Below, one piece after another: positions 2,359 to 30,800 of a stretch of 32,000 nt of DNA. The position numbers and the translations under genes were made by a program. Each line of letters opens with the position of its first letter. The first letter of the stretch is position 1. The notes beneath the pieces are model-generated. The model was given only the letters and a program-made list of their open reading frames with translations. It ran no database searches and was not told the origin of the DNA. Source of the DNA: Nanobdellota archaeon (GTDB lineage: Archaea; Nanobdellota; Nanobdellia; Woesearchaeales; SM23-78); the NCBI GenBank assembly GCA_038046485.1, contig JBBSWA010000033.1, positions 9,632 to 41,631 of the forward strand, given 5' to 3'.

Positions 2359-3678
2359 ATGGAAATCCTACCTTATTTACTAAAAAAACTACAGCAACTT
2401 GGAGCAGAAGATGTTGTCTTACAGTACAATGAAGAAGAAAGCACCCTGCTTAAGTTTGCGAATGATAAACTGGTGAATCATAAAAGCTGGACAGCAACGG
2501 GGACGGGCATTTTTGTTGCTTACAAAAAAAGAATTGTTTCGACTTCACTCCATGAGAATACAACTCAAGCAGCGGATGCCATTGCCAAAAAAACCATTGA
2601 ACTTGCTAAATTATCTGAGCCAAATCCGAATTACCACGGAATTGCGCAAGGCTTTAAGACGCGCCCTCCTGTCGAAGAATTGTATGACCCTAAAGTCAAA
2701 GACGCAGAACTGGTAGATATCTATCAAGAAAGCCTACAAAAAGCTCAACAATATGGTGCTACGCGAAATAGCGGCATCTTACAAAGCCGCATTGTCAAAA
2801 CCAATCTCCTTACGAGTGGTGGAATTGAAGCTAAGGAAGAAAAAACAGGATTGTATTATAGCATTCGAAGCTTTACCGACAAAGACGCTTCAGGCCATGG
2901 GGTTGCTACGAGCAATATGCTAGCTAAGTTTAAACCACAAAAAGCGGCACAGGAAGCAGCTGAGACTGCTGTAGATGGAAAGAACCCTAAATCAGGAATA
3001 GCTGGGAAATATGACATCTTGTTTCATCCTCACCCCATCTCCCATGTCTGGGAAAATATTGGACAAAGTGTTAGCCCCTACAATGTCGATGCAGGCTTCT
3101 CCTGCCTGAAAAATAAAGTCGGGGAAAAGATTGGCAGTGACTTGGTTACCTTACATGATGATGCCCGTCTTAAGAATGGATTTCATAGCACGGCGTTTGA
3201 CGCAGAAGGAGTCCCCAGCCAAGATACTTGCTTGATCAAAAAAGGCGTGTTTCAAACTTACTTGCACAATACGAGTACCGCTCACAAGTATGGTGTGAGC
3301 ACTACCGGAAATGCCGGACTGCTTTCTCCTGAGCCTTCTAATTTAGTTGTTTCACCCGGCGATCAGACGACCGAAGAAATGATTCAAGGCATGAAAAAGG
3401 GACTGTATGTGACGAATGTATGGTATACTCGTTTTCAAAATTATGAGAAAGGAGACTTTTCGACGATTCCTCGCGATGGGCTCTTCTACATTGAGAATGG
3501 CAAGATTCAATATCCTGTCAAGGAGTTACGTATCAGTGAAAACCTTCTTCGGATCCTAAAGAATGTGATCGCCCTTGGACGAAAAAGCGAACAAGTCTAC
3601 AGCTGGGAAGTGAATACGCCTACCCTTACCCCGCATGTGCTAGTGAAGGATTGCAATGTGACCAAGCCGACGGCCTAG
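2359..3678 (+). CDS. pmbA: PmbA/TldE-family protease subunit
   Basis: 439 aa paralog of TldD that lacks the HExxxH site. It shows the typical tldD-pmbA pairing and a C-terminal GxxxxxG..P.L.V motif region. Confidence 0.88.
   Translation: MEILPYLLKKLQQLGAEDVVLQYNEEESTLLKFANDKLVNHKSWTATGTGIFVAYKKRIVSTSLHENTTQAADAIAKKTIELAKLSEPNPNYHGIAQGFKTRPPVEELYDPKVKDAELVDIYQESLQKAQQYGATRNSGILQSRIVKTNLLTSGGIEAKEEKTGLYYSIRSFTDKDASGHGVATSNMLAKFKPQKAAQEAAETAVDGKNPKSGIAGKYDILFHPHPISHVWENIGQSVSPYNVDAGFSCLKNKVGEKIGSDLVTLHDDARLKNGFHSTAFDAEGVPSQDTCLIKKGVFQTYLHNTSTAHKYGVSTTGNAGLLSPEPSNLVVSPGDQTTEEMIQGMKKGLYVTNVWYTRFQNYEKGDFSTIPRDGLFYIENGKIQYPVKELRISENLLRILKNVIALGRKSEQVYSWEVNTPTLTPHVLVKDCNVTKPTA
3656..3678 (+). repeat. 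left copy of 23-nt direct repeat (pmbA 3' end) flanking the TA cassette
   Basis: ATGTGACCAAGCCGACGGCCTAG, compared with the copy at 4229-4251: 21/23 identical. Confidence 0.85.
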
Positions 3679-4005
3679 CTATTCAGAAAACCTTGTTTTT
3701 AAAGAATAAAGCCGCTTCCTAAAATTTCTATAGGCCTTATCATGTTTATCAATGACTAACATCCAAATCTCATTTCCTAAAATATAATAAATCAAACGGG
3801 TATTTGAAGTGATCTCTTCTCGATAACAATTTGAACCACCTGAGAGATGCTTTAACCTAAGTGGATTTGCCTTAATCTTTTCTTTCTTAGCCTCAAAAAT
3901 TTCGATATCATTCTTGGAAAGCTTACCTAAATCCTTAAAGAACTCTGAATGAAACCTAACTACGAACTTTCCCAACCTTAACCCCTCTCTTTTCAAGATA
4001 GGCAT
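3679..4005 (-). CDS. RelE/ParE-superfamily toxin (start uncertain; possibly an internal TTG near 3973)
   Basis: C-terminal LKHLSGGSNCYREEITSNTRLIYYILGNEIWMLVIDKHDKAY resembles archaeal RelE. It overlaps the 3' end of a small upstream partner ORF. Confidence 0.7.
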   Translation of the reverse strand: MPILKREGLRLGKFVVRFHSEFFKDLGKLSKNDIEIFEAKKEKIKANPLRLKHLSGGSNCYREEITSNTRLIYYILGNEIWMLVIDKHDKAYRNFRKRLYSLKTRFSE

Positions 4006-4165
4006 AATACTCTTTCTCCGACTTTCCTTTCTCTCTACCCGTGTCTATATCTAGAATTCTTTGCCTTACCTTAACATCTAGGGCCATCTCTACATCATCA
4101 ATTAACATTTCTACATCAGACAGGATCTTCGTAAAAACTTGCTTAGGAATAACAATCGACTCCAT
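3956..4165 (-). CDS. putative antitoxin (69 aa)
   Basis: Small ORF immediately upstream of and overlapping the toxin. The acidic helical N-terminus (ILSDVEMLIDDVEMALD) is typical of RelB/Phd-like partners. Confidence 0.55.
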   Translation of the reverse strand: MESIVIPKQVFTKILSDVEMLIDDVEMALDVKVRQRILDIDTGREKGKSEKEYYAYLEKRGVKVGKVRS

Positions 4166-4228
4166 AACCTACAAGAAGCGATGATCCCTTAAATAGTTAT
4201 CGGGATTTTAATTGACCTAGTTACTGTC

Positions 4229-4251
4229 ATGTGACCAAGCCTACGGCGTAG
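4229..4251 (+). repeat. right copy of 23-nt direct repeat (duplicate pmbA 3' end)
   Basis: ATGTGACCAAGCCTACGGCGTAG. Both mismatches fall on third codon positions, so it still reads VTKPTA-stop. Confidence 0.85.
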
Positions 4252-4440
4252 GCAGACAAAATTTATAAGGAAGACACCCGTTCATGAATTGTATAGATTA
4301 TAAGGATAATAAGAATGATCTTATGTGTCTCAAAAAATAAAATCATCATCACCCTTGTACTCTTACTCTGCTTATCCCTCTTTGTCAATTTCTTCCACCC
4401 CAAAAATAAGGGGAAAGCTTTAAAAATACTCCCCACAAAG

Positions 4441-4452
4441 TTTATATATAAA
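4441..4452 (+). promoter_or_regulatory. TATA box for pan
   Basis: TTTATATATAAA is centred about 28 nt upstream of the ATG at 4474, which suggests a leaderless or very short-leader mRNA. Confidence 0.5.
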
Positions 4453-4473
4453 GGGATCTATACCTAATCTTAC

Positions 4474-5643
4474 ATGAGTGACCCTTCTGATGCCGTTGTT
4501 AATGCCGACCTAAAGGCAACCTCTGAAGGTCCGGTCTTCTCGTTTACCACGACTTCCGGGCTTAACCTTGAAGAAGAAAATAAGCTATTGCGCGAGACGG
4601 TTCACCAGCTCAAAGAAGAAGTGAACAAGTATCGAACGCCTGCCCTGATGCTGGCGGACGTTGTAGACTTAATGGATGGCAAGGCCGTCATCAAAATCCC
4701 CAATGGAAACAAATTCCTTGTTGAAATTGCCGGACACGTCCAAAATGTGGCCCCCGGCCATTCTGTTCTCATCGAACAAAAAAACCTCACCGTTGTGGAT
4801 AAGATTGAAACCAACACCAAATTCCATGCTGAAAAGTTTGTCATCATCGAAAAACCCAATGTACCCTGGAGCCAAGTGGGTGGCTTAAAAAGCCAAATCG
4901 TTGACATCAAAGAAGTCATTGAACTCCCCCTCACCCACCCTGAACTATTCAAGAAAGTAGGCATCACACCCCCTAAAGGTATCTTGCTCTATGGACCACC
5001 TGGAACGGGGAAGACCTTACTTGCCAAGGCTGTTGCTTCTAGCGCTCACTGTACCTTCATTGAAATTGTGGCTTCTGAATTGGTTCAGAAGTTCATTGGA
5101 GAAGGCGCCAAACTTGTAAAAGAGATCTTTGAACTTGCACGCGCCAAAGCCCCAAGCATTGTCTTCATTGATGAGCTCGATGCCCTTGCTGCACGAAGAG
5201 TTGAACTCGGAACCTCGGGCGAACGCGAGGTTCAACGCACCTTCATGCAACTCCTTGCTGAATTGGACGGATTTAAACCCCTAGATAATGTTAAGATCAT
5301 TGGCTGCACCAACCGCAAAGACATTTTAGACCCAGCTATATTAAGACCTGGACGGCTTGATCGACTCATTGAAGTGACACACCCCAGCAAAGAAGGCATT
5401 TGCGATATCTTCAAGATCCACAGCCAAAACATGCGCTTCCAGGCCAACCTCGTTCCTAGCAAATTTTTGGATCACCTTGAAGAATTCTCCGGCGCTGAAA
5501 TCAAATCCGTATGCACGGAAGCTGGCTACTTTGCCATCCGAGCAAGCCGCACGGTCATCAATGAACAAGACCTCAAATCCGCCATTCAAAAAGTACGAAA
5601 AGAAGAAAATACGAGTAATGATTATTTAGGGATGTTTGGCTGA
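4474..5643 (+). CDS. pan: proteasome-activating nucleotidase (AAA+ ATPase)
   Basis: N-terminal coiled coil (LEEENKLLRETVHQLKEEVNKYRTP), an OB region, Walker A GPPGTGKT, Walker B IVFIDELDA, and a second region of homology. Confidence 0.92.
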   Translation: MSDPSDAVVNADLKATSEGPVFSFTTTSGLNLEEENKLLRETVHQLKEEVNKYRTPALMLADVVDLMDGKAVIKIPNGNKFLVEIAGHVQNVAPGHSVLIEQKNLTVVDKIETNTKFHAEKFVIIEKPNVPWSQVGGLKSQIVDIKEVIELPLTHPELFKKVGITPPKGILLYGPPGTGKTLLAKAVASSAHCTFIEIVASELVQKFIGEGAKLVKEIFELARAKAPSIVFIDELDALAARRVELGTSGEREVQRTFMQLLAELDGFKPLDNVKIIGCTNRKDILDPAILRPGRLDRLIEVTHPSKEGICDIFKIHSQNMRFQANLVPSKFLDHLEEFSGAEIKSVCTEAGYFAIRASRTVINEQDLKSAIQKVRKEENTSNDYLGMFG

Positions 5644-7464: not shown

Positions 7465-7839
7465 CTACTTCTTCCTATATCCCAAAATCTTATTATACTG
7501 AGCATGATCACAGATTTCAAAGACCACACTGATTACTCTAACTTCATCTCCGATTACATAATACAAAAGTCTCCAAAATTGAGACAATTCCATTCGAAAT
7601 AAATTTGGTAGGTTTTCGAATTCCTTTGGCCAAAGACGATGCGGCACCGGATCACCGGTAAATGGATTTATTTTAAGGATGTCCAATGAACGATGGATGC
7701 TCTTTAACAACTGTACATCTAATTTAGGGGGTGTCTTGCCCTGTGCTTCAACAGAATTAATAGAAGCTTCTAACTTTGCTAATGCTTCATCTGCTATCCC
7801 TATAACCTGCACTGACTTAGCCTTATCTCTTAATTCCAT
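7465..7839 (-). CDS. RelE/ParE-superfamily toxin-like protein (124 aa)
   Basis: NPFTGDPVPHRLWP...NLFRMELSQFWRLLYYVIGDEVRVISVVFEICDHAQYNKILGY matches the ParE/RelE C-terminal pattern. It overlaps the upstream partner by 10 nt. Confidence 0.62.
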   Translation of the reverse strand: MELRDKAKSVQVIGIADEALAKLEASINSVEAQGKTPPKLDVQLLKSIHRSLDILKINPFTGDPVPHRLWPKEFENLPNLFRMELSQFWRLLYYVIGDEVRVISVVFEICDHAQYNKILGYRKK

Positions 7840-8096
7840 GAACGGCCCTTACGCAAGATTGCCGCTATATCTTCTTTAGGTGTAGCAATCCATACGACAC
7901 CCTCTGGTGTAAATTCGATTTTTCCGCTTTTCTGCAAATAAGTTAGAATGACTTTGAGGGTATTGTGGTTGACTTTACGAGGCAAGCGACGCTTTAATTC
8001 AGCTATTTTTATGACTTCTTTTTCTTTTTGAATGGTGTCCTCTACCATTTGGACCGTGTCTAGAGTGGGACTGTGTAGCTTAAGGAGCTGTTTCAT
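7830..8096 (-). CDS. small winged-helix-like DNA-binding protein, putative antitoxin
   Basis: 88 aa, located upstream of and overlapping the toxin-like gene. It has an RRLPRKVNHNTLKVILTYLQKSGKIEF wHTH-like segment. Confidence 0.5.
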   Translation of the reverse strand: MKQLLKLHSPTLDTVQMVEDTIQKEKEVIKIAELKRRLPRKVNHNTLKVILTYLQKSGKIEFTPEGVVWIATPKEDIAAILRKGRSWN

Positions 8097-12659: not shown

Positions 12660-14888
12660 GTGACATCTCGGAACCTTACCCCACAGCTCACCATCGTAGC
12701 CCTTGTAGCGGTTGTAGCCATTGTTATCCTTCTGAACCTTGCTGGAACCTCCTTAAGCCCGGACGGCACGATTGGAGGAGAAGCGATTAAGAAACCAAAA
12801 ATTAAACCTCCCATCAACCTCCCGCCCGCAACCCAACTCAGTACGTCCAATACTCCCTTACAGCAAGTCACTATTGTCACCCCCACTGGGACTTATTTCC
12901 TAGCTGTCGACCAAGCAAGCCAACAAGCCTGCAACGGAACCGACTACTTATCTGTAGTAGACGTCAGTAGCAGCATGAACGACCCAGTAGGAAACGGTGC
13001 AGAGACAAAAATAGAACGTGCCCGAAAAGCGCTGGACTTCTTCCTCAGCAAAGTAGCAGGATACGCGCCACCTGACCAGGCAGGCATCGTCCGATTCTGG
13101 TCCATGGCTGAACTTGTGCAAGCCCTCACCTCCGACATCCCCCTCGTACGCAACAAAGCCGCCGCCCTCACCACCCTTTCAGGGACCAACATTGGTGCAG
13201 GACTCAGAATAGGCCAACAACAATTGGACACGCAAAACGTGCAGAAAGAAATCATGATCTTATGGTCAGATGGAGAACCAACCACCTGCCCAGACGCTGG
13301 AGGCATGGACTGCTGGCAGTACGCCCGACAGCAAGCCGATCAGGCCAAAGCAAAAGGCACGGAGATCTATGCACTTGGACTACCCCCAATAAAAGTAAAA
13401 AGCAAAGAAGAACAACTGCTAAAATACATTGCCAACGACCCCGACGAAACGCACTACTACCTGATCGGAACTGACTTTTCCAACCTTGAAGCTATCCTTG
13501 ACAAAATCCATGCCAACTACTGCAAATGCGGCAATGGTAAAGTAGACCCTGGCGAGCTCTGTGACGATAACAACACAAATTCTGCTGACGAATGCCATCA
13601 ATGCGTGCCTACGTACTGCGGCGACAAAATCATTCAAAAACCCAACGGAAAACACACAGGAGGGCCGAAAAACGACGGCTATGAGGACTGCGATGACGGC
13701 AACACCAATGCAAGCGATGGCTGTTACGGCTGCATGACCACCTATTGCGGAGATGGAATCGTACAAAAACCCAACGGAAAAAAGACAGGCGGACCTAAGA
13801 ATGACGGGTATGAGGACTGTGACAACGGGCCGGCTGGAAGCGCGACCTGCACTAAGAACTGCACTAAGATTCAGACCATCTGTGGCGACTCTATAGTTCA
13901 GAAACCCAACAGTTTAAAAATAGGAGGACCAAAAAACGACGGTTATGAAGAGTGCGACGCTGGACCAAGCGGAACTGCCAGCTGCACCAAAAACTGCATG
14001 CTCATACAATGTGGAAATGGCCGCCTAGACCCTAACGAAGAATGTGATGACGGAAACACAAACGCTAGCGACGGTTGTTACAATTGCAAACTCACCTATT
14101 GCGGAGATGGAATCGTACAAAAACCAAACGGAAAAAAGACAGGCGGACCGATGAACAACGGCATCGAAGTATGTGATGACGGAAACACCAATCCTACTGA
14201 CTTGTGCGGCAACAACTGCGTACAAACCTATTGTGGCGATACAATTGTACAGAAACCCAACGGAAGAAAACTAGGCGGACCCAAGAACGATGGCTACGAA
14301 GATTGCGACGCTGGAGTTGCAGGATCCACAACGTGTACGAAGAATTGCACCACGCCTCCAAAATGTGGAAACGGCATTGTTGAAGCTGGAGAAGAGTGCG
14401 ACGACGGAAACGCTGTTAACACAGATGCCTGTATGAATAGCTGTAAGAAAACCTACTGTGGCGACGGAATTATACAGAAACCAAACACACAAGGCAAAAA
14501 CGAAACGTGCGACGACGGAAACAATGTGCCTAATGACGGATGCACGAACTGCACCAAAGACCTTACCTTGAGCGTCAATTGGGCATACTATAAATCTACT
14601 TGTGGCACAAACAACATCCTAATAGAATGGAGCACCACCATGGAACAAGACACCGTCGGATTCAATGTTTTATGGAGCGACAACAAAAACGGACAATACA
14701 TCACCGTAAGCCCCTTCATCTACGCCACCGGAAGCGGAAGCAACTACCAATGGACAGACACTAACACCGATGCAAGCCCCATCACACCCAAAAAAGGGAT
14801 CTACAACTGGTATAAGGTGCAAGAAATATCTACTACTGGGCAAGGGGACGAAACAACACCATTCACAACAGACCACATCTGCCAGTAA
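12660..14888 (+). CDS. secreted/anchored vWA-domain protein with about 12 Cys-rich CxxCDDGN-type repeats
   Basis: GTG start (no ATG or other start codon in frame after the stop at 12474). N-terminal hydrophobic anchor LTIVALVAVVAIVILLNLAG. MIDAS DVSSS...GTNIG...SDGEP. Repeats such as CGNGKVDPGELCDDNNTNSADEC and YCGDGIVQKPNGKKTGGPKNDGYEDCD. Confidence 0.85.
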   Translation: MTSRNLTPQLTIVALVAVVAIVILLNLAGTSLSPDGTIGGEAIKKPKIKPPINLPPATQLSTSNTPLQQVTIVTPTGTYFLAVDQASQQACNGTDYLSVVDVSSSMNDPVGNGAETKIERARKALDFFLSKVAGYAPPDQAGIVRFWSMAELVQALTSDIPLVRNKAAALTTLSGTNIGAGLRIGQQQLDTQNVQKEIMILWSDGEPTTCPDAGGMDCWQYARQQADQAKAKGTEIYALGLPPIKVKSKEEQLLKYIANDPDETHYYLIGTDFSNLEAILDKIHANYCKCGNGKVDPGELCDDNNTNSADECHQCVPTYCGDKIIQKPNGKHTGGPKNDGYEDCDDGNTNASDGCYGCMTTYCGDGIVQKPNGKKTGGPKNDGYEDCDNGPAGSATCTKNCTKIQTICGDSIVQKPNSLKIGGPKNDGYEECDAGPSGTASCTKNCMLIQCGNGRLDPNEECDDGNTNASDGCYNCKLTYCGDGIVQKPNGKKTGGPMNNGIEVCDDGNTNPTDLCGNNCVQTYCGDTIVQKPNGRKLGGPKNDGYEDCDAGVAGSTTCTKNCTTPPKCGNGIVEAGEECDDGNAVNTDACMNSCKKTYCGDGIIQKPNTQGKNETCDDGNNVPNDGCTNCTKDLTLSVNWAYYKSTCGTNNILIEWSTTMEQDTVGFNVLWSDNKNGQYITVSPFIYATGSGSNYQWTDTNTDASPITPKKGIYNWYKVQEISTTGQGDETTPFTTDHICQ

Positions 14889-18947: not shown

Positions 18948-19511
18948 TTGAGCGTGATCAGAATTTCTAAGGAAATTCTGACACTTAAAAAGACCCCATT
19001 AGCGAAAAACGGAGCTTGCGTGAAGGAAATAGCCCCCAGCAAAGACAAAGTAATTGAGCAACTGCGAGAGAGCTACGCTGCGCTTCGAGAACAACACAAC
19101 CTCACCTACGAGGAAATTCTAAACCAACTCCAAAGCGTAGAAACTACCTTGCCCTGCACCATTTTTAGTTCAAGCCTAAGCAGCCTTGAAACCATCACCA
19201 AATATCTCAAAGAAAACCAGCACTTCACCCTCAAAGAAATTGCGCAAAAACTCAATCGCACGTACCGCACGATCTGGGGGGCGTACCATGCCAGCTTGCA
19301 CAAACATCCTTCTGGTTTAACTGCAATTCCCACCCCCTACCACATCCCCCTTTCCCTTTTTTCTGAACGCAAACTAAGCATCCTTGAAACCATCACCCAC
19401 CACCTGCGCTCGACACACCACCTGCGCTACAGTCAAATTGCTAAAATCCTACACCGCGATCCTCGAACTGTTTGGACAACAGAATACAATGCGAAAGGAA
19501 AACTCAAATGA
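18948..19511 (+). CDS. tandem helix-turn-helix protein (two sigma-70-region-4/LuxR-like repeats); non-ATG start
   Basis: Internal repeat LSSLETITKYLKENQHFTLKEIAQKLNRTYRTIWGAYHAS / LSILETITHHLRSTHHLRYSQIAKILHRDPRTVWTTEYNA. The ORF contains no ATG codon. Candidate starts are TTG 18948 or GTG 18954. Confidence 0.62.
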   Translation: MSVIRISKEILTLKKTPLAKNGACVKEIAPSKDKVIEQLRESYAALREQHNLTYEEILNQLQSVETTLPCTIFSSSLSSLETITKYLKENQHFTLKEIAQKLNRTYRTIWGAYHASLHKHPSGLTAIPTPYHIPLSLFSERKLSILETITHHLRSTHHLRYSQIAKILHRDPRTVWTTEYNAKGKLK

Positions 19512-22333
19512 AAAAAAACCTTGATAGTGAAGAGAGAAAACGAGCAGATCTATCGGATCTCCAAGTCCAACGGCTGCGCGGTCTTATTACCAAAATAAAA
19601 ACAGAATATTACTACACCCTACGCCAGACTGAAGCTTTACGACAAAAAGCCAAAGAAGAGCAATGGACCAGCACAGCTTATCAGGAACGGCTATGCAAAG
19701 TATTAAACGGCAAAAAAAACCTGCAAAGTTACCGTGAACACCAAGAAAGTTTGATTCAGGAATACGAACACCAACTTATTGACTCGATCCACTCTGACCT
19801 TACCTCTCAAATCGCACCCTACCAGGTACAGAGTGTTTTCCAACGATTCCAGCAGGGATTCCAAGCAAATACCTATGCTTTGCAACACTACCTGGTTGAG
19901 CAAAAAGTACCCCACATCGCAGGACTCTTCCTACTCATTGTCGTTCTGGGATTTTTTACTTACACTGGATACGTCGCTAAAGATGCCGGCCTTTTCCAGA
20001 CGATTCCCATTGAAACCACCTTTACTGAAAACACGACGATTCCTCTTAACTTAACTGATCTAAGTAGTTTACGTGCGAATGGCCGTCTCATTGGAAAACC
20101 CAGTGTTCATCTCTATTTAGAAGCTGAGAATGGTCATACTCAAAAAACTCAACGCTATGTACTACTGGATGGAGATCGCCTGGGATTGGACATGCTTGCT
20201 ATTACTGGAAATGCTGTTCGACAAAATCAAGGCATTACCTTTGTATTTACGACCGACCAAGAAAAGTATACTATTGAAGAGATGGTTTACGTCGTCCTTG
20301 CCCCTTCGAATAGCTATTACTCGATGTATCTTACCGATTCGGATAACAATACGATCCCCATTGAAAGTCTGAACTTCACCGTGCAAAGACCAGGCGATTA
20401 CCAACTTGTTGGATTACTCACCCAAGATGGAGTAAGTGAACGGCTCGAGACTCGTTTCCACGTTGACGCTGCGCCTGAAACGGAAGGCACTACTCCTATT
20501 TCTTCCAAGAAAGCTACTGAAAAACCCCGAGGACTCTACAGCTTCCAAAACTACTGCCAAGAAAGCTGCCACCTCCCTACTGAATTGGTAGACCCTCGCC
20601 TCGTCATTGAAATCAATGACAACACCCGTGTTACACTCTACAACCTCACGTATAGTCAGCATACCCTTAATGAGCCCCCCAAACAAATCAAGAACATTCC
20701 TGATACTGTGAGTTACTTAGGCTATTCTACCCCTATAGATCTTAACTCTTACTTCCAAGATGAAGATGAACTTATTTATACAACGAGCGCAACTGAGTTA
20801 TCGGCTCACATTGAAAAGGGCATCCTTAATCTGCAAGGAAACAAAACGGGAAGCTACAGCCTCTTTGTCTATGCCAGCGATGGAAACGCAATCATCACCA
20901 GCAAACCCTTTACCATCACGGTAAAAGAACCGCCTATTCAGACTCAGCTCACCCTTAACTGTGAAGGTTGCAAGATGCACCAAACCAAAAGCTACACCGA
21001 GACTTGGGTTCGCCTGAATATTCAGAAAAATACGGACAGGAAAATAGGAAGCTTCTACCTAGACTTACCTGCGGGCTGGCGCGTGACCGACCCCAAAGAT
21101 GGCACGGTGAATGTCATCGATGAAAAACATCCGCGCATCCAATGGACCCTTAAAAAAGAATCGGATGTGATTGAGAAAAACTTCTATGCCCTTGCCCCGA
21201 ATACACAGAAGAAACTGCGACAAAGCTTCAGCCTTACTGTTGCTGACCAGAAACAAGACTATGAAGTGATTACCCACCCGACCCCGATTGACTTACGAGA
21301 AGAGGAAGATGAACTGGACCAGAGACTTGATGTCAACACAAGCATTAACACCACAGGCGATAATTATACTGTCACAGTTCACCTGCCTGATGCTGAAATA
21401 CGGCTTGAAAACGTATACGACCTGGAAGAAATACAGTCCTTGGACTTATTCACCCAACAAAACATCACTCTTAACAATCAGATCTACCTTGCTGCAACCC
21501 CCCTCATCCACTTAAACACATTCCAATTAAACAGCGCCACTTTCATTTTGCCCAAAACAAACCCTGTTAAAGCCCTTGCTGGATGCGAACGATGGAACAC
21601 AGGCACTCAAAGCTGCGAAGCCTGGAACCTTCTTAACACCTCCTTTAATGAAACTCCTACGACCCTTCAATTTACTGTGAAAAAGATTACGGCCTATGCT
21701 GGACTTGGAAAACGCATTGGTGAAATTAAATCGAAATATAAAACATCCAAGATTGGAGCGTACACCGACTACACACTAAACAATGAGACCTATGCCAACT
21801 ACACCCACCCCCTCCTGTATCCAGGCAAGGATAGCTTTAGCGCTGAATTCTGGATCCGCACCAACTCCACTAAAGACCAAACTTTCCTTAGCAGCGAAGA
21901 AGGACAATTCGAAACCTACTGGAAGATTGGAATGGACATGGCCCGGTACGGGATCCTTGCCATACGCCTCAGCAGCCAAGAAGGCGAAACAATCAAAGAA
22001 ATTCCAGACGCCCTTGTTGACGGCCCGCAAAGCTTTGGAACCACTCTACTGAATGATGGACAATGGCATCACCTCCTTGCGGTACGCGACCGCAACCAAA
22101 ACACGATCCTTGGGTATGTAGACGGAAAACTTGACCTCACCTATAATGACACCAGCACAGACATCATGGATACTGCAAGCCACCTCATCCTTGGCAGATC
22201 AAACCCGAACAGCGATGCAGGCTATGATGGCGAGTTTACCCTTATTGACCTCTACGACCATGCCCTTACACCTGAAGAAATGCAGAGCCATTACCAAACT
22301 CAAAAATCACTCTTTACTGAGGTGAAGGCATGA
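19508..22333 (+). CDS. single-pass membrane protein: cytoplasmic helical N-domain, TM, cadherin/Ig-like module, C-terminal LamG (ConA-like lectin) domain
   Basis: The ATG at 19508 overlaps the TGA of the upstream gene (ATGA). TM helix IAGLFLLIVVLGFFTYTGYV. Cadherin-like IDLNSYFQDEDELIYT...SLFVYASDGN. LamG pattern SFSAEFWIR...DGQWHHLLAVRD...LGYVDG...LILGRS...DLYDHALTPEEM. Confidence 0.8.
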   Translation: MKKNLDSEERKRADLSDLQVQRLRGLITKIKTEYYYTLRQTEALRQKAKEEQWTSTAYQERLCKVLNGKKNLQSYREHQESLIQEYEHQLIDSIHSDLTSQIAPYQVQSVFQRFQQGFQANTYALQHYLVEQKVPHIAGLFLLIVVLGFFTYTGYVAKDAGLFQTIPIETTFTENTTIPLNLTDLSSLRANGRLIGKPSVHLYLEAENGHTQKTQRYVLLDGDRLGLDMLAITGNAVRQNQGITFVFTTDQEKYTIEEMVYVVLAPSNSYYSMYLTDSDNNTIPIESLNFTVQRPGDYQLVGLLTQDGVSERLETRFHVDAAPETEGTTPISSKKATEKPRGLYSFQNYCQESCHLPTELVDPRLVIEINDNTRVTLYNLTYSQHTLNEPPKQIKNIPDTVSYLGYSTPIDLNSYFQDEDELIYTTSATELSAHIEKGILNLQGNKTGSYSLFVYASDGNAIITSKPFTITVKEPPIQTQLTLNCEGCKMHQTKSYTETWVRLNIQKNTDRKIGSFYLDLPAGWRVTDPKDGTVNVIDEKHPRIQWTLKKESDVIEKNFYALAPNTQKKLRQSFSLTVADQKQDYEVITHPTPIDLREEEDELDQRLDVNTSINTTGDNYTVTVHLPDAEIRLENVYDLEEIQSLDLFTQQNITLNNQIYLAATPLIHLNTFQLNSATFILPKTNPVKALAGCERWNTGTQSCEAWNLLNTSFNETPTTLQFTVKKITAYAGLGKRIGEIKSKYKTSKIGAYTDYTLNNETYANYTHPLLYPGKDSFSAEFWIRTNSTKDQTFLSSEEGQFETYWKIGMDMARYGILAIRLSSQEGETIKEIPDALVDGPQSFGTTLLNDGQWHHLLAVRDRNQNTILGYVDGKLDLTYNDTSTDIMDTASHLILGRSNPNSDAGYDGEFTLIDLYDHALTPEEMQSHYQTQKSLFTEVKA

Positions 22334-24849
22334 GACAAACTCTTCACCTCACCTTCCTACTAGTACTTCTAGTCATCCTGGTCCTTCTAGGCACTACCCT
22401 TGCAGAAGCTGCCAATGCCACGGTGGTATACAGAAGCAATACGGGCAGCTGCGCTTCCAACGCCTTGAACTGCCCCAAGATTCGAGCCTGGGATAGCACG
22501 GGTGGGGGAAGCTGGGGAAGCGCAGTTGAGTTGCCGACTGCCGGAAGCCCTGTTCGATATGCCGTCATCCGATTCAGCAATGTCAGCAGCAAACGAGCCC
22601 TTGTCACTTCGAGCGACGACGGCTTCCTCGACGGATATGTTTCGTACAACAACACCGCCTGGACGGTCACGAACAACATCGGTCAAGTGTTTGGAAGCAA
22701 CGCCGCCAAAAACGAACGACGATTTGACCTGCAATTCGAAACAGCAAGTGGAGACGCCGTACTAACCTATGCCACCACGAATTCCAGCGGAAACTGCGAC
22801 CTCGCGTACAAGGTATTATTGGCGAATGACACCAGCTGGGCCAACAGCGGCGAAACCTGCATTGACAATGACCAACGCACCCAAGATGACCAATCCAGCT
22901 ACATCAACATGGATCGCAACCCGTCTGATGACAGCTCTGAAATGGTGATGGCCAACCTCAATACCAACCTCTCCGATGTCACCGCACGAGTTTGGGATGG
23001 GGACAACTGGGGCAATCGAATGAATATCACCACCACGAGCTCCATTACCACCACTGAATCGCAAGATGTGGCTTATGCCAAGGATGGAAGCAAAGCGATG
23101 GTCGTTGCAGGGGATGGAGTGAACGGAAACGTCACAACCAAATACTGGAACGGGGCAAGCTGGACTACTACTCCCGGATTTGACATCGATACGGGCGATG
23201 CTCTCGACCTCAAATGGATCCACCTGAAAGCCGACTCGCTCACAGATGACTTGCAAGCCGTCTTTGTAGACAGCGGCAGTGATCTAGGAACAGCCTACTG
23301 GAACGGTGCCACTTGGGCCGTAACGCGCAATATCGATACTGCCGTGGACAGCAATGCGGCGCGACCCTCCGACTTTGCCTGGAACAGCACCAACAGCGGC
23401 GGAAAATTAGTCTTGGACACGGACACTACAGGCACTACACTCAGCCAACGCGGCTGCACCCCTCAATGCACCAGCGGCACCACTACGTTCTCCACGTACG
23501 CTGCCACCGGTGCTTGGCTCAACCTCTACCGCGTGCCTTATGATCCCCTCACAAAAGTAAGCATCCTTGGACTACGCCTCAACAGTGCCTTTGACCTGGG
23601 CAGCTTCGCCCAAGGCATCAATGGAAGCTACTATACATATGGAGACAACACCCTTACAGCCGATACAACCGTAACTACCTTTGAACCCTACAGCCTCGCC
23701 TTCCAAACAGCCTACGGCGGATACTCAGCCCCTTCCACTGTTTACACCCTCAACCAAAGCGCCTTCATCAAACTCGACAACAAAACAACAGATTGGGGGA
23801 ATCTCACCATTTTAACTGACACGGCCGGCGACCAAGCCGCAGGAGGAAGCTCCTTCGATATCACTAACATCAGCCTTGCTAATGGCCCCACACGACTCTT
23901 CGCCTATCTCCAACTCGCAGGAGGAGTGAACTACAGCGCCAACAACTACTACCGCATCTTCGTCACCAATAATGAGGACAATGGCAAACCCACCGCTCCT
24001 GATACAGGTATATTGCTTCCTTTCAAATACACCCACGTCATCCAGCTCAACAACAGCAAATGCCGCGTCTTCAACAACACCGGCGGAAAAGTCGGCAACT
24101 GCCAATATTACAGCAACAACAACACCCTTGAAATTGAAGTCCCCTTCAAATACCTCAACGTGACCAAAGGAGAGAGCTTGAACGTAACGTTTGAGACGGG
24201 CAACTGGACGAATCGCTATGACCTTGCGCCTTACAACAGCGGCTACATCCAGTTCCTCATCAACCAAACCAAGTACGAAACGTACAACTTTACTAACAAC
24301 ACCTACGCTAATTACTCAACAGACGATCCCCACCCATCGAATGGAAGCTTTAGCGCAGAATTATGGGTGCGAACCCCTGTCACTGCCGATCAGATGTTCA
24401 TCAGCAGCGGAGAGTACGACAGCATGGAGTACTACTGGCGCATTGGGATGATCTCTGCCCACACAGGCATCTTATCGATTAAGATGCAAGACGGAATCGA
24501 AGGCGGGGAATGGTGGGAGATTCCAGACCCCGGCGCTGAAAGCGGACAGATCATTGGTAGCAGCAGCTTGAGTGACAATCAATGGCACCACATCGCCTTT
24601 GTAAGGGACCGAGAACAGATGCGAGTCTATGGCTACGTGGACGGTGTGCCTGAGATCAACTTTAGTGACAGCAGTCGAAACGTGACAAGCAATGCCTCCA
24701 ACCTCGTCTTAGGTAAGTCCAACATTTACGCAGACCCTGGATTGGTAGGAAATCTAAGTGTAATCGGCACGTATAACCGAGCCCTCACGACAGAAGAAGT
24801 ACAAGATCACAACCTCACCCAACGAGAAGAAATCGAGGGAGAAACATGA
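22330..24849 (+). CDS. secreted protein: signal peptide, six W-x-G-x-x-W-type repeats (propeller-like), middle beta-sandwich-like module, C-terminal LamG domain
   Basis: ATGA overlap with the upstream gene. Signal peptide LLVLLVILVLLGTTLAEA. Repeats RAWDSTGGGSW, NNTAWTV, NDTSWAN, RVWDGDNWG, KYWNGASW, AYWNGATW at about 52-aa spacing. LamG pattern SFSAELWVR...DNQWHHIAFVRD...YGYVDG...LVLGKS...YNRALTTEEV. Confidence 0.85.
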   Translation: MRQTLHLTFLLVLLVILVLLGTTLAEAANATVVYRSNTGSCASNALNCPKIRAWDSTGGGSWGSAVELPTAGSPVRYAVIRFSNVSSKRALVTSSDDGFLDGYVSYNNTAWTVTNNIGQVFGSNAAKNERRFDLQFETASGDAVLTYATTNSSGNCDLAYKVLLANDTSWANSGETCIDNDQRTQDDQSSYINMDRNPSDDSSEMVMANLNTNLSDVTARVWDGDNWGNRMNITTTSSITTTESQDVAYAKDGSKAMVVAGDGVNGNVTTKYWNGASWTTTPGFDIDTGDALDLKWIHLKADSLTDDLQAVFVDSGSDLGTAYWNGATWAVTRNIDTAVDSNAARPSDFAWNSTNSGGKLVLDTDTTGTTLSQRGCTPQCTSGTTTFSTYAATGAWLNLYRVPYDPLTKVSILGLRLNSAFDLGSFAQGINGSYYTYGDNTLTADTTVTTFEPYSLAFQTAYGGYSAPSTVYTLNQSAFIKLDNKTTDWGNLTILTDTAGDQAAGGSSFDITNISLANGPTRLFAYLQLAGGVNYSANNYYRIFVTNNEDNGKPTAPDTGILLPFKYTHVIQLNNSKCRVFNNTGGKVGNCQYYSNNNTLEIEVPFKYLNVTKGESLNVTFETGNWTNRYDLAPYNSGYIQFLINQTKYETYNFTNNTYANYSTDDPHPSNGSFSAELWVRTPVTADQMFISSGEYDSMEYYWRIGMISAHTGILSIKMQDGIEGGEWWEIPDPGAESGQIIGSSSLSDNQWHHIAFVRDREQMRVYGYVDGVPEINFSDSSRNVTSNASNLVLGKSNIYADPGLVGNLSVIGTYNRALTTEEVQDHNLTQREEIEGET

Positions 24850-27800
24850 GGATGAATCCCCTAAGCCAAAAAGGATTGATTCTCTTTGTACTGGCAGCCC
24901 TCTTCTTCATCCTCTTCTCATCTGTGACAGAGGCTGCCAACGCCACAGCCGTCTACCGAAGCAACACCGGCAGCTGTGCCACGAACGCCACGAACTGCCC
25001 CAAGATCCGCTTCTGGAACAGTACAGGGAACGGTGATTGGAGCAACGAAACTGAACTGCCAACAGCCGGCAGCCCCATCGAATGGACAGTCATACGCTTC
25101 AGCAATGTTTCTTCCAAACGAGTGATTGTCACGCAAAGTGCTGACGGACAACTGGACGGCTATGTTTCATACAACAACACCGACTGGACCGTCACCAACA
25201 ACCTCGACCGAGTTCACAATGGAAATATAGCCGCCAAAACCAGGATGTTCGACGTGCAGTTCGAAACCAGCACCGGCAACGCCCTTTTAGTGTTCGGCAT
25301 TGGCAGTGCCAACGCAGCGTGTGACCTGGGCTACCGCATATTGCTGGCAAACGACACGAGTTGGGCCAACAATGGAACCAATTGTTACAATGACGTGAAC
25401 TTCGCAAACGACATGCAATACACATGGATTCATTCCGACCGCAATTACGCAGACACTAGCAACCAGATCATCGTCAGTGGTTTCTACGCAAACGGCAGTG
25501 ACATTCGGGCCTGGGTGTGGAACAACTCTGTATTCACCAACCCAAGAAACATCACCATGGTCTCCTCCTCGACGACCGGCCAGAATTTTGATGTGAGTTG
25601 CAGCAACACTGCAGGATGCTGGGTAGCTGCAGGAACCGATACAAATGGAAACGTAAGCGCACACAACTGGACAGGCAGCGCGTGGCAACAAACCCTAGGC
25701 TGCGACCCCACCAACGCCGGCCAGGACGTCACTTGGCTCAGTCTCAAAGCCGACCCCCTTACTGATGATCTCCAGATCGCTGTTTCGGACACCGGGACCG
25801 ACCTGGACGCGTGCTACTGGACAGGCAGCGCGTGGACCGCCGTCACCCAAATTGATGCCGACATTGATGGCACTACGACACGACTCTTTGACGTCGCTTG
25901 GAACACGTCAACCAACAGCACCAGTACAGACGCCAAGTTGATATGGGATACCGACACGACCGGCATTGGCCTACGCGTACGAAGCTGCACACCAGCCTGC
26001 AACAGTCAAACATTGGGCTCAGTGAGCAGCTACCCTTCCACTGGAAACTGGTTGTCTTTATACCGCGTAAATCCAGATCCCAATACGAACGTTGCCATGC
26101 TCGGCCTTCGCATGAACATCACCCCCTTTGGCATCGGCAGCTTCGCCATCCTAAATACAACCGGCAATTTCACCCAAGCGGGCACGTACGGCAACAGCAG
26201 CCTGACCAGCAACGCGTTCGTTGGCACTACGGAAGGAAGCTTCCTTGCCTTCCAACAATCAAGCGAAAACCGAAGTATGATCCCCTTTGTCACAGCCGTG
26301 CAAGCCCTTTCCAAAAAACTCCTCAACAACAGCGCCCTCAATGTAACTGCGAATGTGAGCAGCAGCGATGGACACAGTGTCTATACTGCCTATGCTACGG
26401 TCTATGCCCCCAATGGAAGCCTGTTCCAAACCCTTGCCCTCACCAATGGCGTTTCCATCATTTACACCAACGCCACGGAAAAATTCACCACCCTCCCCTT
26501 TGGAAACTGGCTTGTCAACATCTACGCCAATAACACCCGAGGCAGCTTCAACGACACGGAAAACACGACCTTTGCCATTTACCGCGCCCTGAACCAAAGC
26601 AAGACCATCACCATCGACGGAAACTTTGGCGACTGGGATGCCATTGTGAACACCACCGACCCCCTCACGGACAACACAGGCCCCATTGCAGGACAGCTCG
26701 CCGTCCACCGGCCCTACAATGGAAGCACTTCAGGCACAAACACCAATGCCAATGAAACGTATGATAACAGGCTCAATGACACTACGACCAAAATTGACCT
26801 GCTACTCAAAACAATATATAACGTAACTTATCAGCTACCAACTAAAACAACCCAAGGCCGCTTCTACACCACAATAGACTTTGATGGTGGTCCTGGAACC
26901 TCGTTGCGATTACAAGTCTATAATTGGAGCAATGGCACGTACCAGGCCTTCACCCTGTGCGCTAACCCAGTCACTTGTTCCGGAACGACAAGTTCTACAG
27001 ACGTAAGCCTAAACAACGGTTTAATCAACAGCACCGCCAACACCATGATTTTGTTTGACACCACTGGAGGCCCCACTACGGCTGACGTCAGCGACACCTA
27101 CATCAGCGTACCTGGCGGAACGTACGACTACCAAGGCATTACCAAACCCAGCCAGCCCATGAATGCAAGCAATGGCAGCGTCGCTATTGGAACCCCCTGT
27201 GCTTCCAACAGCGACCCTTACTGTGGGACTACACTCCAAGAATTTGCCACCAAAGAATACCACGCCGTTGCCCTTGAAAACAGCACCACCATGACACAGG
27301 TTTCATCCGGCACCAATTATGCCACTATGATCTTCCACTTCAACATCAGCGAAACTCGAGAAAACCCTCAAGAACTCACCCTGCGATGGATCGGAAGCTG
27401 GAGCGGAAACGGCAACCTCCAAGTTGGCTTCTACAACTATGGCAGCAGTGCATGGGATGGAGTATCCATTATAAGCGACAGTGCTTTCAAACCCCGAATC
27501 ATCAATGTCAGCAATGCCACCGACTACATCAATGACAACAAAATGGTCCACGTCCTCCTCCAAGGAGGCACGGGCATCGGCGGCAACCTCATCACCGACT
27601 ACGTCAGCCTATCCACCCTTGCCAAACCCAATCGAGACTTTGACCTCAACCAAGTCAAGCTGACCAACAACAACACCCACTTATTCGCGTACATGAAATT
27701 AAATGGCAGCGTCAACTTCAACAATGCCAGCCGATACTACCGCCTGTTTGTCTCCACCACGGAAAGCGGCCCCAACTCCACCACGCCCGAGACTTTCAAG

Positions 27801-30800
27801 CAACTGCCCTTCAACTACAGCTACCGCATCCAACTCAACAACTCGGCCTGCACCATTTTCAACAACAGCAACGTCACCCTCTCCGGCTGCACGTTTGCGA
27901 ATGATTCCGATGAGATTGAGCTTCAAGCACCCCTCTCCACACTTGATCTAACTACGGACAAAAACATCAACGTCACCTTTGAAACCAGCAGCGCCACCGA
28001 GCAATACGACACAGCACCTGACGCACAAAGCTTCCTTAATGTTTACCTGAATAATACTGTTGAAACACCTGCCCCCTGCGACAAACCCCTCACTGGAGAC
28101 TGGAATGTGAATAGCACACAAGTCTGCAACAACCAACTCATCAACCTCACCGGAAACTTAACGATTAACGGAACTGGCAATCTCACCTTCCACAACGTCA
28201 CGCTGATCATCAATGTCACGTACAATGGCACTTATGGCATCAATGTCAGCGGCACTTTCTTTATCAATCAAAGCAACATCACAGGCATCAACCAAACCAC
28301 CTGGCTCAGCAACCAATATACTTTCCGCACCTTCTCAGGAAGTAGCCTCACCCTTATCAACAGCAACGTCAGCCGTACTGGATGGACGAATTCCTTTGGG
28401 CGCCGAGGACTCGAAGCCAATGGAACCCTACAAAACTTCAGCGGAAACACCCTCGCCAGCAACTTCATTGGCCTCACGATCTACAGCAGCGGCAATAATA
28501 TCACCCAGAACACCATCCATAACGACCAAACAGGCGGAATGCTCTACGGCATCTACATACTTGGCGTAAGCGGCTACGCGCCCACCGCAAACCGCATCAC
28601 CAGCAACACCATACGAACCAATGGAACCAGCACCAAAGGCATACGACTCGAAACAAACGCCAACCAAACCAACATCACCGGAAACACAATAAACACCTGG
28701 GGAACCAGCAGCAGCAACATTGGAATCCTACTCACCACCAACACCGGAAACAACACCATCACCGCAAACACCATCAACACCAACGGAACCAACAACAACT
28801 ACGGCATCCAACTCACCACCAACACCCAAAACAACACCATCCAAGGAAACACCATATGGACCGACGGAAGCAGCAGCAGCAATCACGGAATCCTCCTATC
28901 CGGAACCGCCACCACCCTACTCCAAGGAAACCTCATCCAACACAACACCATCAACACCCAAGGAACCAGCACCGACATCGGCATCTACCTAATCACCAAC
29001 GTAAACCAAACCACAGTATACAACAACACCATCACCACCAAAGGAACCAACGACAACTACGGCATCAACTTTCTCATACAAGTAGGTAATAATACTATCA
29101 CTGGAAATACGATCAACACTGCTGGAACGAGTACCAACTACGGAATCTACCTAACCACCGACACAATCAACAATGCCATCACCGGAAACACCATCTGGAC
29201 AGACGGAACCATCAACAACAACTTCGGAATCTACCTACTAGGAACAGCAACCACACTAACCGACGGAAACATCATCCAACACAACACCATCCACACCAAC
29301 GGAACCGCTAGCAACTACGGCATCTACCTCAGCACCTACGTAAACAAAACTACCCTTCAAAATAACACCATCACCACACAAGGAAGAACAGGAGGAAACA
29401 ACTACGGAATCTACCTAACCACCGACACAATCAACAACAGCATCCAAGGAAACACTATAAACACCAATGGAACCGATACCGACTACGGCATCTACCTGAG
29501 TGACTCTGCTGACGGAAATGTCATTCAGGACGCTTACGTCAACACCACCCAATCCCCTGCCGTTGTCATCGAATCCAACCATAGCGTACTTTACAATGTA
29601 ACCGCCATCAGCAACAGCAGCAACGGCATCCAACTCAGCCTCAGCGCCTACAACAACACCATCAATTCCTCCTATGGATACAGCGAAACTGGAATCGGGA
29701 TCTACCTCTTACAAGACAGCCACAACAACAACATCAGCCATAGCACGGGCAACAGCACCCGCGGCGCAGGAGTACGCACGGGCAGCTACAACAACACCTT
29801 CATCAACCTAACCGCATTGACACGCTGGGGACAAGCCCTCTACTTCGGCTTTGCCAATGCCACAACTGTCATCGACCTTACTGCCCGAGCACCTGTCGGA
29901 ACAGGAGTCTTCCTTGCATACAGCAACAACATCACGATTCTTGGTGGAATGATCAACGCGAGCAACGGATTCAACTTCACCGACGCCAGCAATGACAACA
30001 ATTTCATTGACGTGAACCTGACCAATACCACTGCCGCACTGGATGTGTTCTTCAAAAGCACTGCAGCCGCAAACAGCGTGAACACCACCTTCCTCAATGT
30101 CACCTTTAGAAAGACAAACATTACTTACAGTTGTACGGGAGTCTGCACGTTTAATGTAAAATGGTGGCTGAATGTCAAAGTCAACACTTCTGACCAAACC
30201 AGCTTACAAAACGCCAACGTGACGATACGAGATGTAAATATAGCCCAACGGTTCACAGAACTCACCGACACCAACGGCCAGATCGTCATTAAAAACATCA
30301 CCGAGTACACCCAGACTGCGCTCAGCACCACACCTTTAACCAATTACACCATGAACGCCACCTCCCCCGACAGTGATATCATAGAACTGGAAACACCAAC
30401 CAGCCCGCACCGAAGCTTCAACCTCACCCAAAGCACTTACCTCTTTGTCACTTTCAGAGACACCTGTCAAGAACCCCTCACCGGCGAATGGAATGTGAAC
30501 AGCACCCAAATTTGCAGGAACAAAATCATCAACCTCACCGGCAACTTAACGATTAACGGAACAGGCAACCTCACCTTCCACAACGTCACCTTGATCATGA
30601 ACACCACATACAACGGCAGCAGCATGATCAACATCTCCGGCTACGCCACCATCAACCAAAGCAACATCACCGGAATCAACCAAACCGCCTCTCTCAGCTG
30701 GCAATACGCCTTCATCACTCGCGTCAAAAACGCCGGACCCGACCTCCCCAACAGTATAACCATCATCAACAGCCACATCTCAAGAACCGGATGGAACGAC

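Follow-up and report, generated by a model that had tools for sequence, protein, structure and literature searches.

How does a two-gene toxin–antitoxin (TA) operon come to lie between two copies of the last codons of a housekeeping gene? The locus that raises this question is the 3′ end of pmbA (tldE) in a Nanobdellota archaeon of the Woesearchaeales (assembly GCA_038046485.1, contig JBBSWA010000033.1, positions 9,632 to 41,631 of the forward strand). We refer to this whole stretch of 32,000 nucleotides as the window. A short cassette on the minus strand separates the end of pmbA from a second, in-frame copy of that end, and comparison with other DPANN archaea points to recurrent insertion of TA cassettes at this one position. 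The features of the locus, in window coordinates, are:

734–2161: tldD, upstream of pmbA
2359–3678, plus strand: pmbA (tldE), 439 aa, the intact target gene (Pfam PmbA_TldD_3rd, E 1e-67)
3652–3678, plus strand: repeat copy 1 (23-nt core 3656–3678), the functional pmbA terminus, reading C N V T K P T A stop
3679–3975, minus strand: toxin gene, encoding 98 aa when started at TTG; begun at ATG, the open reading frame (ORF) reaches 4005
3956–4165, minus strand: antitoxin gene, 69 aa, with a 20-nt overlap with the toxin start
4166–4228, minus strand: non-coding right end of the cassette, carrying a TATA-like box
4225–4251, plus strand: repeat copy 2 (23-nt core 4229–4251), a non-functional copy of the pmbA terminus, reading C H V T K P T A stop
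4252–4473, plus strand: ancestral pmbA-downstream region; PAN begins at 4474

The first-pass annotation of the window had reported that the last 23 nt of pmbA recur at 4229–4251 with two synonymous mismatches, on the far side of a RelE-type TA pair encoded on the opposite strand. Both statements hold. The core of copy 1 (3656–3678) is ATGTGACCAAGCCGACGGCCTAG and that of copy 2 (4229–4251) is ATGTGACCAAGCCTACGGCGTAG; the two mismatches are at third positions (CCG/CCT for Pro, GCC/GCG for Ala), and both copies encode the same peptide and close with an in-frame TAG. A weaker in-frame similarity continues for 4 nt to the left (TGC AAT versus TGT CAT, 3652–3655 and 4225–4228) and may bring the repeat from 23 to 27 nt. 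Nor is the 23-mer common within the window: it has exactly two matches at three or fewer mismatches across the 32 kb. A chance repeat is ruled out, as none is expected from dinucleotide-preserving shuffles (no match in 100 shuffles of the window). An assembly artefact is likewise excluded because four independent Hainich groundwater assemblies (L001–L004) agree base for base over this region, and the version found in the related contig L086, described below, appears in three datasets.

The empty site is seen in relatives. Related DPANN contigs carry pmbA orthologues that are 87% (L085), 78–79% (L005) and 74% (L086) identical to that of the window, and we define an empty site as pmbA joined to GCAGACAAAATTT through a single copy of the repeat. 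L005, a relative in GTDB, has no TA genes; at most 12 nt past its pmbA stop comes AAATATTTATAAGGAA, followed by a gene of 317 aa. The window shows the same order after copy 2, which runs on into ancestral downstream sequence and is collinear with the L005 pmbA end and the region downstream of it. L085 also lacks TA genes and has the same downstream sequence as that after copy 2 of the window. The inserted mobile cassette of the first-pass annotation is thereby supported by the comparison that it had proposed, namely that of the pmbA-downstream region in relatives. As these alignments stand, the window cassette is a real insertion relative to L005 and L085, with its left boundary at the pmbA stop and its right boundary at a second copy of the terminus that continues into ancestral downstream DNA.

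L085 also holds a segment of its own at this position. Directly after its pmbA stop, exactly where the window has its cassette, lies a 192-bp AT-rich segment (L085:6269–6461) bounded by 13-bp terminal inverted repeats that match perfectly (GGTATAGATAATT) and containing a 12-bp palindrome pair, features that give it the look of a miniature inverted-repeat transposable element (MITE). No other copy was found among 178 loci.

In L086, an orthologous cassette begins right after the pmbA stop, and its left junction is identical to that of the window. The two cassettes are about 80% identical in nucleotides, the toxins 85% and the antitoxins 67%. The L086 cassette is flanked by a 33-nt duplication, AAGGGATTGAATGTGACGAAACCAGTGGC (29/29) and then GTGA or TTAA, depending on the copy, and both copies encode the same peptide and end in a stop. 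This duplication is the terminus of the L086 pmbA itself; of the 20 positions that align with the window terminus, 6 differ. When the window is compared with L086, synonymous sites are saturated in pmbA, tldD and PAN (proportion of synonymous differences, pS, 0.71–0.86) and nearly so in the TA genes (toxin pS 0.59, antitoxin pS 0.73). Within each of the two genomes, copy 2 is 91–100% identical to copy 1, so the duplications appear far younger than the split between the two lineages, unless the copies are continually homogenised.

The clearest sign of movement comes from L095, a groundwater contig of only 641 nt. Its cassette differs from that of L086 at 2 of about 555 nt (99.6% identical), whereas identity is only about 73% over the 88 nt of pmbA next to it. 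The last pmbA differences lie 7–8 nt before the end of the stop codon, and identity jumps there, within 6 nt of that codon. Beside these near-identical cassettes the L086 and L095 versions of copy 1 differ at 7 of 33 nt, so the functional copy tracks the host and not the cassette, except perhaps in its last 6 nt. Of copy 2, L095 shows 17 nt, which are those of the L086 copy 2 and are off the terminus of L095 itself at 5 of 17 positions. L096, from the same project as L095, is a cassette-only contig of 526 nt whose ends fall 6 nt and 3 nt short of the cassette boundaries, a pattern that branching of the assembly graph on both sides would produce. By these comparisons one cassette lineage adjoins at least two divergent pmbA alleles at the same nucleotide, which indicates recent horizontal movement to the same site within this cassette family. 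Further look-ups for contexts of the L086-type cassette gave only the same strain or contexts other than pmbA.

How general is the arrangement? We searched about 90 DPANN pmbA loci, each downstream for a copy of its own terminus. A seed-based scan proved of limited sensitivity (it missed the repeat of the window itself), and the counts of duplications are therefore lower bounds. At least four of the roughly 92 loci carry a terminal duplication: the window (23–27 nt), L086 (33 nt), L008 (42 nt) and L009 (60 nt). All four duplications end exactly at the stop codon, and together they bracket three different TA types. L008 and L009 are Woesearchaeota genomes whose pmbA proteins are only 45–46% identical to that of the window. 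The L008 repeat (36 nt perfect, plus CAT GTC versus CAC GTT) surrounds a pair of a ParE-like and a DUF2683 gene, and the L009 repeat, with 3 mismatches, surrounds a nucleotidyltransferase (MNT) gene and a HEPN-like ORF. In all four loci the cargo is convergent with pmbA, its last stop either overlapping the pmbA stop (L009) or lying at most 6 nt beyond it, and the inserts measure 0.55–1.05 kb. The first-pass annotation had suggested looking for the same 23-mer beside other TA cassettes; terminus repeats are present there in L086, L008 and L009, each with the terminus of its own pmbA. Sequence comparison accordingly places unrelated TA cassettes (ParE/DUF2683, HEPN-like/MNT) at the same position in distant DPANN lineages.

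The pattern is specific to pmbA and to these archaea as far as we have searched. A terminus-anchored scan of 1527 open frames in the 92 non-redundant DPANN loci found the duplication pattern only at pmbA, and none of 73 bacterial pmbA loci has a terminal duplication.

Several candidates from these surveys were set aside. The 1900-nt tblastn spans of L006, L007, L009 and L024, which resembled pmbA plus an insert, are in fact the tldD C-terminus plus pmbA. Weak repeat matches in L102, L123, L134 and L135 are chance matches inside unrelated coding sequence, and a 21-nt repeat in L099 is also due to chance. The survey yielded some observations in their own right. In L006 (8031–8046), 1.1 kb downstream of pmbA and in a region with few intact ORFs, 16 nt of the pmbA terminus (ATAAATATTACAAAGC) recur exactly, possibly as what is left of an old cassette junction. 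L006, L007, L009 and L024 differ in the stretch that separates pmbA from a conserved glycosyltransferase gene. In L008, a gene of about 1.1 kb upstream of tldD/pmbA is duplicated in tandem (593–2675; about 88–90% identity, in several blocks).

A toxin 78% identical to that of the window led to a further contig, L097 (Logan SRR22388054_54210), which holds an array of cassettes (935–2717). Three copies of a 42–54-nt repeat (935–988, 1609–1651 and 2664–2717) encode, in frame, the C-terminus DFQANLEGTDYCEGY-stop of a gene that the contig does not contain. They separate successive TA cassettes (MNT/HEPN-like, MazE/PIN and HEPN-like/MNT), after which a RelE-like pair follows. The differences between the copies are CAG/CAA, CTC/CTT, TAA/TGA and GGA/GGG, plus one non-synonymous change.

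The first-pass annotation had drawn attention to the synonymous-only differences between the two window copies, and the pattern extends across loci. When the five repeat families are taken together, 13 of the 16 changes that separate copies preserve the amino acid or the stop, where neutrality predicts 22%; P is 8e-7 under neutrality of both copies and 3e-4 under neutrality of copy 2 alone. Without the repeat edges that were extended by eye, 9 of 11 differences are of this kind (P ~0.003, same null). Therefore, each copy has mostly diverged as, or tracked, a functional gene end.

What does the cassette itself consist of? The insert between the repeat copies is 550 bp long (3679–4228), matching the roughly 550 bp of the first-pass annotation, and holds two overlapping ORFs on the minus strand and no others. 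The layout is that of a two-gene TA operon, with a small upstream antitoxin ORF overlapping the toxin, and the pair is conserved in L086 and in other contexts. The toxin is convergent with pmbA and its stop codon (3679–3681) abuts the pmbA stop with zero gap. This gap is not diagnostic by itself because abutting or overlapping convergent stops are common in these compact genomes without any cassette (for example L007:5516–5519, L024:6904–6907 and L098:3292–3297). The GC content of the cassette is 0.34–0.39, versus 0.44–0.47 in the flanking genes.

By sequence the window toxin has no Pfam match at E ≤ 1 and only a weak NCBIfam match to YafQ (E 0.048). Its family comprises about 98 homologue clusters, several of them with PF05016, and every source-given name that states an organism is that of a DPANN archaeon. 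Homologues at 58–64% identity (P0162, P0186) score above the PF05016 cut-off (25–26 bits versus 23), and the family profile finds E. coli RelE as its best solved relatives (E 0.009–0.02). An AlphaFold2 model of the toxin (pLDDT 85.3, pTM 0.75) matches YafQ, YoeB, HigB2 and archaeal RelE (1wmi_A, 3bpq_B) in Foldseek with TM scores of 0.65–0.83, and superimposes on E. coli RelE (4fxe_E) with TM 0.70/0.83 and an rmsd of 1.4. These matches of the model justify the label RelE-type at the level of fold, and the predicted structure gives the toxin a fold of the RelE/ParE superfamily. The antitoxin has no match in Pfam or NCBIfam; its L086 orthologue is 67% identical, and it has further homologues.

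Upstream of the antitoxin ATG by 23–33 nt, on the minus strand at 4188–4198, lies a TATA-like box, ACTATTTAAGG. It sits in a block shared with L086, CCTTA[A/T]ATAGTTATCG (4187–4202). The archaeal TATA box is A/T-rich, and both its position and this known composition suggest that the element is the promoter of the operon.

Among other homologues of the toxin, the six loci L089–L094 (toxin homologue P0133) are polymorphic: a gene of 116 aa follows the toxin in L093 and L094, and a 337-nt gap takes its place in L089–L092. A DDE transposase gene of the insertion-sequence type lies about 1.1 kb from this polymorphism.

Familiar vehicles do not fit the cassette. No inverted repeats were found at its ends by a repeat search, and neither a transposase nor Cas1 was found at the cassette; with the long and variable duplication (23–60 nt), this rules out a DNA transposon, a MITE or a casposon. 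An integron attC site or other hairpin is ruled out as well, since repeats and junctions fold no better than shuffled sequences (z-scores −1.15 to +0.88). No tRNA or other RNA family was detected at the insertion site.

What process, then, would place such cassettes here? The explanation we favour, at about even confidence, is that an integrase-less TA cassette recombined at an attachment (att)-like pmbA terminus, with the enzyme supplied in trans or the recombination performed by the host. The two copies of the terminus would mark where recombination took place, as attL-like and attR-like junctions. The cassette, in a circular or repeat-bounded form, would carry one pmbA-terminus-like segment and undergo Campbell-type recombination with the chromosomal terminus, catalysed by a recombinase in trans or by host homologous recombination, and repeated integration would build tandem arrays. 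Conservation of the target between hosts is limited to its coding part, and for this reason similarity would end with the stop codon. Loop-out between the repeats would remove the antitoxin gene, so that the integrated cassette would be retained by addiction, and the operon would be transcribed from its own TATA-like promoter, convergently into pmbA. Recombination at an att-like terminus explains why one gene is used repeatedly, how the array arose, and where the synonymous bias and the edge at the stop codon come from. Moreover, direct repeats flank the insert and match a single site in empty genomes, and the same element is found at the same site in different hosts (L086 versus L095), both of which are marks of integrative elements. 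A number of observations nonetheless weigh against this explanation. A scan of the cassette and of the window ORFs as far as 18.6 kb (those from 18.9 kb onward fall outside it) turned up no integrase or recombinase, in agreement with the first-pass annotation, which saw no integrase. Downstream of pmbA in 66 loci, the families shared by 3 or more of 129 ORFs likewise include no integrase, a weak negative because rarer families lie outside this count. To the right of both junctions we found none of the arm symmetry or shared motifs that the core site of a tyrosine recombinase would be expected to have, and searches of IMG/VR with pmbA, the toxin family and the cassette motif returned no viral or free copy. 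In each case the repeat matches the pmbA of its own genome, as a target-site duplication would also give; its length varies from 23 to 60 nt, and 23 nt is at the lower limit for homologous recombination. Flanking repeats are absent from nine homologous TA pairs in other contexts and from a second TA pair of the window (7465–8096, described below), which also rules out such repeats as a general property of the toxin family. Finally, the key contig L095 is only 641 nt long and could be a strain mosaic joined within the identical cassette, which makes the assignment of its copy 2 uncertain.

Some of these same observations would suit an insertion with long target duplication, which we regard as possible but doubtful. 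The cassette would carry no pmbA-like segment, and a break-repair or transposition-like process would copy 23–60 nt of the recipient terminus. In this way copy 2 of each genome would match its own pmbA, copy 1 would track the host in L095, L096 would end just inside both cassette boundaries, as if the flanks differed between contexts, and no mobility genes would be needed at the cassette (ORFs scanned up to 18.6 kb). There is also a precedent in the 45–420-bp duplications around restriction–modification (RM) units (PMC2853133). Long target duplication is harder to reconcile with the visible 17 nt of copy 2 in L095, which match L086 and not the terminus of L095. This favours the att-like recombination over long target duplication but, because of the possible mosaic, is not decisive. 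Nor would such a duplication explain why the synonymous bias persists when only copy 1 is constrained (P = 3e-4), and an exact edge at the stop codon in five independent repeat families, with one gene reused in distant lineages, is not predicted by non-specific break-repair. The first-pass annotation had instead seen the signature of an element that targets the 3′ end of a gene and brings its own replacement terminus, as elements in tRNA genes do. Insertion at the gene end stands; no integrase-bearing parent element was found, and the replacement terminus is contradicted, in the one informative pair, by the seven differences between the L086 and L095 versions of copy 1 beside a 555-bp cassette that differs at 2 nt. 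In its full form, this classical model would have a larger, integrase-encoding element cross over at the left edge of the repeat, supply copy 1, leave copy 2 as the displaced host terminus and lose everything but the TA genes by deletion. It would explain the synonymous-only differences, the end of similarity at the stop codon and the contiguity of copy 2 with ancestral downstream DNA, and TA pairs, being addiction modules, are plausible last survivors of decayed elements. Yet the same minimal layout, with the toxin stop 0–6 nt from the pmbA stop, recurs in four lineages with three types of cargo, and independent decay to one end point is therefore unlikely. No integrase-bearing element was found at the site in about 90 loci (flanks of 3.5–5 kb; commoner families), and we hold the classical model to be improbable. 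Least probable of all, and in our judgement very unlikely, is a single ancient insertion, inherited vertically and lost in L005 and L085, with gene conversion holding copies 1 and 2 close in sequence. In its favour, the TA genes of the window and L086 have diverged to a degree comparable with their host genes, and the left junction is identical in both. But conversion would have to be efficient over 23–33 nt while synonymous sites became saturated, and a 99.6%-identical cassette beside a 73%-identical pmbA would go unexplained, as would the unrelated cassettes at the same site in lineages with 45–46%-identical pmbA and the L097 array. The one case of incongruence between cassette and host that the alignments reveal thus counts against it.

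The surroundings of the cassette in the window are mainly housekeeping archaeal genes: tldD, PAN, Trm5/TYW2, FEN1, L37ae, Pcc1 and prefoldin. Just downstream of copy 2, at 4258–4270, is a promoter-like AAAATTTATAAGG. In alignments, a 50-codon ORF at 4315–4467 (MILCVSKNKIIITLVLL...) matches the N-terminus of the 317-aa gene downstream of pmbA in L005 (6393–7346), and also the start of the same gene in L085. Judged by these alignments it appears to be a truncated remnant of that gene, so the spacer between pmbA and PAN would also have suffered a deletion. The second TA-like pair of the window lies on the minus strand at 7465–8096, between Trm5/TYW2 and an EamA transporter gene, and consists of a 124-aa ORF with weak ParE-like and YoeB matches and an 88-aa ORF upstream of it. 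Further along, 12660–14888 and 19472–32000 hold large repetitive ORFs, among them a 742-aa protein that combines VWA with DUF4215 repeats and two or more very long ORFs (953 aa, 839 aa and others) made of 81–84-nt repeats rich in Asn, Thr and Gly. These are presumably surface proteins, and they give many spurious repeat matches.

How does the arrangement compare with known systems? That an insert is bounded by copies of the end of its target gene is in itself a familiar principle, known from integrative elements and from RM long target duplication. In bacteria, RM gene units have been described as inserted with long target duplications (Nobusato et al. 2000; Furuta, Abe and Kobayashi 2010, PMC2853133) of 45–420 bp, without mobility genes and in some cases overlapping the 3′ end of a gene, and the authors found no archaeal case (PMC2853133). 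Both there and here, a small addiction-type module without a mobility gene lies between direct repeats that are single in the empty-site genome, some of them at a gene 3′ end. The RM cases are bacterial and scattered over unrelated sites, whereas here the modules are TA pairs in DPANN archaea, distant lineages share one target terminus, the stop codon forms the exact edge of the repeat, and differences between copies are synonymous. By the definition of Furuta et al. (2010), the inserts are addiction-type modules without mobility genes and smaller than 20 kb; the duplications of L086 (33 nt), L008 (42 nt) and L009 (60 nt) exceed their 30 bp, and that of the window (23–27 nt) falls short of it.

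The locus also resembles integrative elements that target gene ends, in that the repeats are the end of the target gene, the target stays intact and insertion is recurrent and site-specific. Such elements target the 3′ ends of tRNA or protein genes and regenerate them; SGI1, for example, integrates at trmE with 18-bp direct repeats. Unlike the cassettes described here, they encode their own integrase and are kilobases long; here no integrase is present in units of 0.55–1.05 kb, and the functional terminus follows the host (in one informative pair). Integrase-less elements mobilised in trans are also known, namely cis-mobilisable elements (CIMEs), which are att-bounded, and integrative mobile elements exploiting Xer (IMEX), which use host Xer at dif. 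They too have att-like repeats without a recombinase gene and would be expected to accrete in tandem, as in the L097 array. In contrast to them, no helper or recombinase was found here, and the site is a host-variable coding terminus rather than a conserved dif-like palindrome. Cassettes of integrons, among them those with TA genes in the Vibrio superintegron, are similar in being units of about 0.5–1 kb with a promoter and ORF, with one recombination site each, occurring in arrays and carrying TA cargo; here there is no attC hairpin, IntI or attI, and the repeat copies a host gene terminus.

What is new is the TA-only cargo, the DPANN hosts, the lack of a recombinase in units of 0.55–1.05 kb, the tandem array and the recurrent targeting of the tldE/pmbA end in lineages that share only about 45% identity between their pmbA proteins. 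We tentatively propose that DPANN archaea may carry undescribed minimal cassettes, in which a TA operon is joined to a captured coding terminus of 20–60 nt that serves as a portable attachment or homology site. Such cassettes would carry no recombinase of their own, would form tandem arrays and would favour the tldE/pmbA terminus. A literature search on pmbA as an attachment site found nothing relevant. In E. coli, the TldD/E protease has been linked to degradation of the CcdA antitoxin (PMC5810440, PMC3497727), which makes the choice of pmbA, the gene for one half of that protease, intriguing. With such a preference, the TA operon would be convergent and antisense to a gene with a potential influence on how stable antitoxins are.

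For those who annotate these compact genomes, short in-frame copies of gene ends mark insertion junctions. The loci offer a signature that can be searched for in DPANN and other genomes: the edge of a cassette at a stop codon, a coding terminus in two copies and one favoured target gene. A passage of one source still describes the route by which chromosomal TA modules are acquired as unclear (PMC13617665), and the recurrent occupancy of the pmbA end by TA genes points to a repeated route of entry into chromosomes. If integration does proceed through a carried copy of the terminus, these cassettes would be among the smallest site-targeting mobile units known, and would represent an archaeal counterpart of integron cassettes and of the mobility of RM units by long target duplication.

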